Below, one piece after another: positions 6,132 to 6,150 of a DNA stretch of 10,294 bases. A program made the position numbers and the translations under genes. This DNA comes from a virus. Numbering within the stretch: position 1 is the first letter of the stretch; each line of letters opens with the position of its first letter. Where the stretch lies: UHGV virus genome UHGV-1838671. One strand, given 5' to 3'. The notes beneath the pieces were generated by a model, which saw nothing but the letters and a program-made list of their open reading frames with translations, searched no databases and had not been told where the DNA came from.

Positions 6132-6150
6132 TGAATCAGTAGATGATTCA
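6132..6150. promoter_or_regulatory. Second, distinct palindrome TGAATCA-N5-TGATTCA, 24-42 bp upstream of the cI-like start
   Basis: Perfect 7-bp inverted arms with a 5-bp spacer (gtaga). Unrelated in sequence to the ATTACC-N5-GGTAAT motif. Occurs once in the window as a full palindrome. Confidence 0.4.

Follow-up and report, generated by a model that had tools for sequence, protein, structure and literature searches.

A conserved dyad beside the repressor gene of phiV10-like Uetakeviruses as a candidate accessory operator

Introduction

The 154-bp, AT-rich spacer between the repressor gene rep and the divergent Cro-like gene of the virus genome UHGV-1838671 contains, besides operators of the Rep family, a palindrome of a different sequence. 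This arrangement raises the question of whether the second palindrome is a regulatory site, what might read it, and how it would affect synthesis of the repressor. The stretch analyzed here, referred to as the window, comprises 10,294 nucleotides and represents the early and immunity region of an Escherichia coli prophage, a phiV10/epsilon15-like podovirus that belongs to the genus Uetakevirus. Over the 1.3 kb surrounding the palindrome, identity is 100% with one E. coli chromosome and 97-98% with phiV10, ZX5, TL-2011b and others, and phiV10-type prophages are present in 541 of 5426 complete E. coli genomes (~10%). These prophages reportedly share a non-cleavable Rep/antirepressor switch that was worked out in SPC32H. 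The palindrome, hereafter the dyad, is described in neither the sequence records nor the accessible papers, and it adds modestly to a type of region that is already well known.

Genes and operators of the switch region

The switch region comprises two divergent genes, a predicted rightward promoter and three operators:

5524..6108, minus strand: rep, encoding a 194-aa repressor with two HTH domains, a homologue of SPC32H Rep
6164..6178, no strand: operator O1, TTACC CAACA GGTAA, perfect consensus
6181..6195, no strand: operator O2, GCACC TCATA GGTAA
6209..6237, plus strand: predicted rightward early promoter of the Cro-like gene, TTGTTA-17-TATTAT
6212..6226, no strand: operator O3, TTACC TTATG GGTGA, overlapping the -35 and spacer of the rightward promoter
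6263..6493, plus strand: gene of a 76-aa Cro-like HTH protein, phiV10 gp41 homologue, divergent from rep, PHROG 35

Rep exhibits Pfam matches to a YdaS-like domain (residues 21-61) and to HTH_3 (residues 106-147; E = 1.2e-9), the latter accompanied by a weak LacI-type signature, and no peptidase domain was found by Pfam in its 194 residues. It matches PDB 5D50, the SPC32H Rep structure, with E = 4e-42. We take 5D50/5D4Z to represent a tetrameric Rep whose N-terminal HTH binds ATTACC-N5-GGTAAT operators, and the C-terminal domain of SPC32H Rep is said to be described solely as a tetramerization and antirepressor-binding core. The Cro-like protein matches PHROG 35 ("transcriptional repressor") with E = 5.6e-13. 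Across lineages, O1-O3 keep their arms and vary in the spacer, with the arms of O1 invariant, and the equivalents of these operators carry a repressor-binding annotation in the epsilon15 GenBank record (AY150271.2). The intergenic region between rep and the Cro-like gene is, as a whole, unusually conserved.

Additional Rep-type operators (zero or one arm mismatch) were identified in the window at 136-150, 5390-5404, 5452-5466, 6549-6563, 8495-8509 and 8557-8571. Two pairs of operators show an exact spacing of 62 bp: the first pair lies downstream of rep, on the side of the leftward operon, and the second upstream of a Holliday-junction-resolvase-like gene at 8575. Single operators are located upstream of the integrase gene and just past the terminator behind the Cro-like gene. 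In phiV10, more Rep-type sites occur near the terminase, tail-fibre and oac regions. Judged by sequence, these scattered operators suggest that the Rep regulon may be large and that the Rep tetramer may loop the DNA between sites.

Several further features were noted. A third palindrome, ATATTTATTATCTGAAATAAATAT, with arms of up to 9 bp, spans 6227-6250 and covers the -10 and the start of the predicted rightward promoter. Across lineages whose Cro-like proteins share only 60-80% identity, the entire leader of the gene (~6227-6262) is near-invariant and is thus conserved beyond the coding sequence. In epsilon15 (locus L004, 2085-2098), with the same sequence in SPC32H (L088), the pentamers of the dyad appear everted, as ATTCA-GATA-TGAAT, at the predicted start of the rightward promoter; this arrangement is not seen in Klebsiella relatives and may be due to chance. 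An intrinsic terminator (6515-6534) lies directly 3' of the Cro-like gene and is followed by the Rep-type operator at 6549-6563, so that the rightward operon apparently consists of units under separate control. The small gene that comes next (6644-6844, PHROG 1081) encodes Cys/His residues spaced as in a zinc-binding motif. The DnaT/HTH_36 replication gene (6860-7675) contains short tandem peptide repeats at ~7150-7290 (GNEPEN twice and KNGMLNDP twice); such repeats in a replication-initiator gene imply tandem DNA repeats, which could be origin iterons. The annotation of Tyrion (L548, 12060-12272) includes one more small gene, which lies past the end of rep, before the leftward early genes, runs on the opposite strand and is missing from phiV10 and BUCT554. 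Outside the window, a consensus LexA box, CTGTATAAATACACAG, is found in phiV10 (L090, 20822-20837) directly upstream of p24, a homologue of epsilon15 gp19. A LexA-controlled small antirepressor has reportedly been described in SPC32H, with which the phiV10 box is consistent.

Sequence, position and chance level of the dyad

The dyad and its parts are as follows:

6132..6150, no strand: dyad TGAATCA-GTAGA-TGATTCA, core TGAAT-N9-ATTCA, perfect 7-bp arms and a 5-bp spacer
6132..6136, no strand: rep-proximal pentamer, TGAAT on the plus strand and ATTCA on the rep strand
6139..6143, no strand: dyad spacer, free in sequence, 5 nt in the window
6144..6150, no strand: operator-proximal arm, TGAATCA on the rep strand

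A first-pass annotation of the window had described a perfect palindrome TGAATCA-N5-TGATTCA at 6132-6150, and the plus-strand sequence bears this out. It had also placed the palindrome 24-42 bp upstream of the cI-like ATG, which agrees with the open reading frame of rep (5524-6108, minus strand): measured from the A of the start codon at 6108, the dyad spans exactly that interval and is centred at -33. Read on the rep strand, the dyad is TGAATCA-TCTAC-TGATTCA, its first arm (6150-6144) adjoining the operators and its second (6138-6132) adjoining rep.

The view that a second palindrome family, distinct from the Rep operators, lies beside the rep start was upheld by the half-sites and by a pattern scan. 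The half-sites TTACC and GGTAA, with the core ACC-N7-GGT, are not matched at 6132-6150 even when up to two arm mismatches are allowed. Moreover, with up to two mismatches allowed, the dyad occurs once in the window and once in the complete phiV10 genome (39 kb), whereas Rep operators occur in multiple copies at early promoters, often as pairs 17 or 62 bp apart. Membership in the Rep operator family was rejected on both counts. The N-terminal domain of Rep, whose half-site differs from that of the dyad, is on this sequence comparison probably not the binder. A 10-nt match to the dyad inside rep (TGAATCAGTAATTCA at 5651) is attributed to chance, as it is not maintained at synonymous sites even among phiV10-type loci. 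The dyad is not an intrinsic terminator either, being no G+C-rich stem followed by a T run; a scan of 5900-6700 returned only the terminator at 6515-6534.

In first-order Markov simulations, the expected number of perfect inverted repeats with 7-bp arms (spacer 0-12) is about 10 per window. At least one such repeat falls in the 154-bp intergenic region with P = 0.21, and in the 54-bp segment separating O1 from the ATG with P = 0.06. From a single sequence alone, the dyad is thus within chance (P about 0.06-0.2); it is conservation in relatives that takes it beyond.

Conservation of the arms in relatives

Switch regions were gathered by Rep-anchored searches of genomes and viral contigs, from phage records, and by a metagenome scan anchored on the neighboring operators rather than on the dyad itself. 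The resulting 232 loci collapsed into 39 distinct O1-to-ATG haplotypes. Since the lineage sample was anchored on conserved operator and start-codon patterns, it is confined to the phiV10-like group, and the counts below refer to haplotypes, not to independent evolutionary events.

Perfect arms are present in 12 of the 39 haplotypes, combined with seven different spacers (TCTAC, TCTTC, CCTAC, CCAAT, CTAAAC, ACAAA and CTGAC). The operator-proximal arm is conserved in the phiV10-, L092-, L005-, L125- and L302-type lineages. In pairwise comparison of five lineages whose Rep proteins are 59-78% identical to that of the window, the arms are identical at 140 of 140 positions; the corresponding identities are 44% for the spacer, 43% for the 23 nt on its downstream side and 82% for the 13 nt on its upstream side. 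Fixed arms around a free spacer in relatives make the dyad more than a chance symmetry: the arms, and not the spacer, are under purifying selection in several diverged lineages. On sequence grounds, this pattern is the signature of a protein-binding dyad, and we infer that a protein binds it.

The rep-proximal half is the most strictly kept. ATTCA is invariant in all 36 haplotypes that have the element, and the column identity of this pentamer is 1.00 across 19 lineage representatives. A set of ~160 nearly identical phiV10-type loci shows substitutions in the spacer, at the innermost base of the arm and in the flanks, and none in the outer pentamers. The spacer is mostly 5 nt long, with 6 nt in L005 and 4 nt in L117.

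Decay and absence of the element

The operator-proximal arm varies more widely. Its variants include TGAATTA in Tyrion, TGAACCA in BUCT554, and AGAATCA, TGAAACA, TTAATAA and TGGCTCA; besides Tyrion and the BUCT554-like clade, a degenerate arm is also found in L006, L113, L115, L117, L362, L376 and L428. Tyrion and BUCT554 are isolated, viable temperate phages, which indicates that the full dyad is dispensable. In the BUCT554-like clade, the middle of the arm (6146-6148) is hypervariable and follows the pattern TG-nnn-CA, with the arms TGAACCA, TGGCACA, TGCATCA, TGACGCA and TGAGGCA in sequences that are otherwise 95-98% identical over 550 nt. The differences concern two or three adjacent bases, at the equivalents of 6146-6148 in L341, L343, L338, L359, L400 and L428. 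Either these few bases are free within an otherwise tightly constrained region, or diversifying selection acts on them. Elsewhere in this clade, the remaining recurrent spacer differences are confined to the operator spacers.

The dyad was not found in epsilon15, SPC32H, the Klebsiella relatives or L118/L119; in the epsilon15 group, a Rep half-operator, GTTAGGTAAC, occupies the equivalent position. The lineages with a perfect dyad are not those nearest to the window by Rep identity, which implies either an ancestral perfect dyad with repeated decay or mosaic exchange. From the sequences compared, the ancestral state looks like a perfect dyad that has repeatedly decayed, if mosaic exchange does not account for the distribution.

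Position relative to the predicted rep promoter

Promoters were sought with a simple position weight matrix scan of the rep strand in 16 lineages, in which all hexamers proved weak. Two candidates were retained:

6150..6179, minus strand: P2, predicted rep-strand promoter candidate, -35 TTTACC (6179-6174) inside O1, 18-bp spacer, -10 TAAATT (6155-6150)
6161..6166, minus strand: P1, predicted alternative -10-like hexamer TAATAT (TAAAAT) in the right arm and flank of O1, start near 6153

P2 is the sole candidate whose -35 and -10 positions are conserved in both phage groups, with a spacer of 17-18 bp and the -10 variants TAAATT, TTTAAT and GATAAT, and an independent promoter scan returned its homologue in L006 as TTTACC-16-GATAAT. 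The start predicted for P2, ~6144, coincides with the conserved CA that ends the operator-proximal arm. Relative to the predicted starts, the dyad would extend from about -6 to +13 (P2) or from +3 to +22 (P1). Under either candidate, the predicted -35 or -10 is overlapped by O1, not by the dyad, and the conserved predicted promoters, weak as their hexamers are, stop at or just before the dyad.

These predictions divide the earlier proposal that the dyad lies where a maintenance promoter or an OR3 equivalent would be. Its position does fit control of the rep promoter; as a location for an OR3 equivalent it is correct only approximately, as O1 overlaps the predicted promoter and the dyad would lie over or just past its start. 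By analogy, O1 is the better counterpart of OR3.

The arms do not themselves constitute a sigma-70 promoter. TTGAAT (6151-6146) has no conserved TAnnnT at 16-18 bp in relatives, where the conserved bases are GAG instead, and this candidate was ruled out. A leaderless rep promoter with its -35 in the dyad was also rejected: in the phiV10-like group, the hexamers that resemble a -10 at 6-8 nt ahead of the ATG are weak and inconsistent, and the position weight matrix scan returned a good match (TTAGGT-17-TACAAT) only in epsilon15/SPC32H. No Shine-Dalgarno sequence is recognizable before the rep ATG in ~20 lineages (6109-6131 in the window). A conserved GAG lies ~15 nt upstream of the ATG, 5-6 nt past the invariant ATTCA.

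In ZX5, which is 98% identical, the rep transcript was reported to be down by 75% upon inactivation of Rep through antirepressor overexpression (PMC9782041, section 3.8). This drop implies that rep transcription is regulated beyond simple constitutive expression, and by itself assigns no site to that regulation.

Interpretation and alternative explanations

Our tentative best explanation is that the dyad is an accessory, lineage-specific operator-like site for a putative dimeric protein at the start of the rep transcription unit. In phiV10-like Uetakeviruses, its two half-sites (TGAAT and ATTCA, centres 14 bp apart) would be bound by a dimeric DNA-binding protein where the rep (maintenance) transcription unit begins, and the binder could be a host factor or a phage protein that every lineage shares. 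More broadly, its retention in several diverged relatives indicates that the dyad is probably an extra regulatory protein-binding site. If bound, it would probably act repressively: the predicted starts place it over or just past +1, so that a bound protein would most likely hinder initiation or promoter escape and lower rep transcription. The range of spacer lengths (4, 5 or 6 nt) counts against a dimer operator, as it would be poorly tolerated by a rigid dimer. The repeated decay of the operator-proximal arm, also in the viable phages Tyrion and BUCT554, counts against it as well, as do the lack of the element in epsilon15, SPC32H, the Klebsiella phages and L118, the lack of any gene within ~10 kb that tracks dyad integrity, and the chance probability of 0.06-0.2 in a single sequence.

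The main alternative is that the symmetry is incidental, a reading that we regard as possible, if on the unlikely side. The operator-proximal arm would then be the rep core promoter, either the discriminator and start (TG-nnn-CA after a conserved TTWAAT) or a TTGnnn -35; ATTCA together with GAG would be an unrelated DNA or 5'-leader element, and no dimer would read both. The unequal evolution of the arms fits this account, with ATTCA present throughout and the other arm reduced to TG...CA in the BUCT554-like clade, as do the conserved AATTG before the operator-proximal arm (resembling a -35 TTG or the end of a -10), the placement of the predicted start on the conserved CA, the viability of phages without the symmetry, and a chance probability of the palindrome that is not small. 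However, in five lineages in which the spacer is only 44% identical, the discriminator bases, which this reading would leave free, match the other arm exactly in complement and are 100% conserved, TTGAAT lacks a sigma-70 -10 partner at the required distance, and the GAG is too distant from the ATG for a Shine-Dalgarno sequence. To our knowledge, no function is known for ATTCA...GAG in a leader, which likewise counts against an incidental symmetry. An even weaker assumption, that the dyad is a functionless chance palindrome inherited within a slowly evolving intergenic region, is quite unlikely: although its probability in one sequence is appreciable, the intergenic region is unusually conserved as a whole and many lineages have lost the dyad, the 100% identity of the arms against 43-44% in the adjacent spacer and flank of five diverged lineages speaks against it. 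Least probable of all, and in our view extremely unlikely, is a role at the RNA level, in which a hairpin in the leader of the rep mRNA, or in an antisense transcript, would act on stability or translation. Perfect-dyad versions do fold into a 7-bp stem (-5 to -6 kcal/mol), and for a rep gene that lacks a Shine-Dalgarno sequence unusual translational control is conceivable. Yet RNAalifold on 16 lineages yielded 0 conserved pairs in the rep leader, the stem energy is ~0 in most degenerate lineages, the changes at inner positions are not compensatory, and under P2, as predicted, the first arm would be untranscribed. The absence of conserved pairs and of compensatory inner changes indicates that the constraint does not act on an RNA stem.

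Candidate binders

Several binders were considered. The first-pass annotation had named the Cro-like protein as a possible binder, and a special case of our preferred explanation would make the dyad the operator through which the gp41 homologue shuts off rep, apart from the Rep operators. Shut-off of rep is expected in the lytic phase, and the ZX5 transcript falls once Rep is inactivated (PMC9782041); gp41 is a small HTH protein whose PHROG is annotated as a transcriptional repressor, and the dyad is located at the predicted rep promoter. Nevertheless, this proposal is distinctly improbable and the earlier suggestion was not supported. The HTH of the Cro-like protein (AGTTSHYIQTHLTGKRK) is essentially invariant in phages with a perfect, a decayed or no dyad (epsilon15 and SPC32H, and nearly so in the Klebsiella phage). 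An invariant recognition helix predicts conserved targets, and those conserved everywhere are the TTACC-N5-GGTAA operators, which argues against a Cro-specific dyad. In addition, O1 already overlaps the predicted rep promoter. Nor do these comparisons set the operators of Cro apart from those of Rep.

The other suggestion, a host factor, was considered for IHF, a nucleoid protein that might bend the switch region. The epsilon15 record (AY150271.2) contains a protein_bind feature "integration host factor" 21-43 bp upstream of its rep, and 6134-6146 of the window (AATCAGTAGATGA) differs from WATCARNNNNTTR at one position, with an A/T-rich flank. IHF found no support as the candidate, however, and its involvement is very improbable: the window contains 18 one-mismatch matches to WATCARNNNNTTR where 18.5 would be expected by chance, Tyrion, BUCT554, L005 and L006 have kept the pentamers but lost the match, and the epsilon15 sequence at this place is not homologous to the rep-proximal arm.

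Rep itself might read both families, its N-terminal HTH recognizing TTACC-N5-GGTAA and its C-terminal HTH_3, which would have kept the ability to bind DNA in phiV10-like phages, the TGAAT dyad, with the latter as an autoregulatory site released or engaged when the antirepressor grips the C-terminal domain. If true, a single Rep protein would have two DNA specificities, and the dyad at its own promoter would serve as an autoregulatory site. We consider this very unlikely. In its favor, the C-terminal domain is a bona fide HTH_3 with a weak LacI-type signature, and its recognition helix reads Q...R in group A and P...R in epsilon15/SPC32H; the repressors of the Klebsiella phages and L118 have similar C-terminal helices yet no dyad, and helix variants do not track arm variants, both of which count against a Rep of dual specificity.

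Searches across lineages named no further candidate. Arm variants showed no covariation with the recognition helices of Rep (N- or C-terminal), the Cro-like protein or the gp42 homologue. A search for genes tracking dyad integrity, within 1.5-3 kb and then ~10 kb at 14 large loci, returned spurious small ORFs only. The exact palindrome had at least 120 matches in viral contigs; among the matches listed, 17 were Uetakevirus switch regions and 102 were unrelated contexts, with no co-occurring binder. These 102 contexts, which have no phiV10-like protein nearby, represent chance background. GANTC methylation sites, a CRP half-site, and sigma-54, sigma-32 and sigma-E patterns were looked for by eye in the lineage alignment, and none was conserved.

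Implications

The published switch model derives from phages without the element. A dyad that is conserved but unannotated, placed where the rep transcription unit would begin, points to a further input into the synthesis of the repressor that lies outside that model and would come from a host factor or from a second activity of the phage. If the dyad is real in this sense, its two pentamers offer a simple handle on repressor level and lysogeny stability, and the repeated natural loss of one arm provides ready-made variants. Should it prove to be merely an incidental symmetry of promoter and leader, the finding would be an ordinary one.

Comparison with known systems

The closest comparison is with the Rep operators of the epsilon15/SPC32H type, which belong to the same phage family and the same intergenic switch and, like the dyad, are short, have a 5-bp spacer, and keep their arms while the spacer is free. 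The dyad differs from them in its half-site (TGAAT(C)A versus TTACC), in being single-copy rather than present 15 or more times per genome, in the 9 bp between its outer pentamers, in the dispensability of one arm, and in its absence from epsilon15 and SPC32H. The predicted IHF site of epsilon15 (AY150271.2) lies at the same distance from the rep start codon as the dyad. Its sequence is, however, not homologous across the rep-proximal arm, and the half-operator GTTAGGTAAC is found there.

Several E. coli sites share the pentamer, including the ARG box (TGAAT-N4-ATTCA), the MetR site (TGAA-N5-TTCA) and the Cra half-site (TGAAWC). The dyad does not appear to belong to any of these, as its 9 nt between pentamers (7 nt between TGAATC and GATTCA) fits none of the corresponding arrangements (N4, N5, and abutting half-sites with a central CG). 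Furthermore, the C of TGAATC is not conserved in relatives.

Sites for a second regulator are known for P2 Cox, 186 Apl and CII-type activators, the last straddling the -35; they are mostly direct repeats or differently spaced half-sites, and their binders have been identified. The dyad, as a candidate, shares with them the concept of a switch site read by a protein other than the immunity repressor. Its centre, at -33 from the ATG, would fit a CII-like geometry only if the rep mRNA were leaderless. In lambda, OR3 shuts off the maintenance promoter PRM and is common to cI and Cro. OR3 shares its sequence family with OR1 and OR2, whereas the dyad stands outside the operator family of its switch. 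What the dyad has in common with OR3/PRM is its location in a divergent switch, next to the gene of the repressor and at the promoter predicted for maintenance, where a repressive role would be the likeliest.
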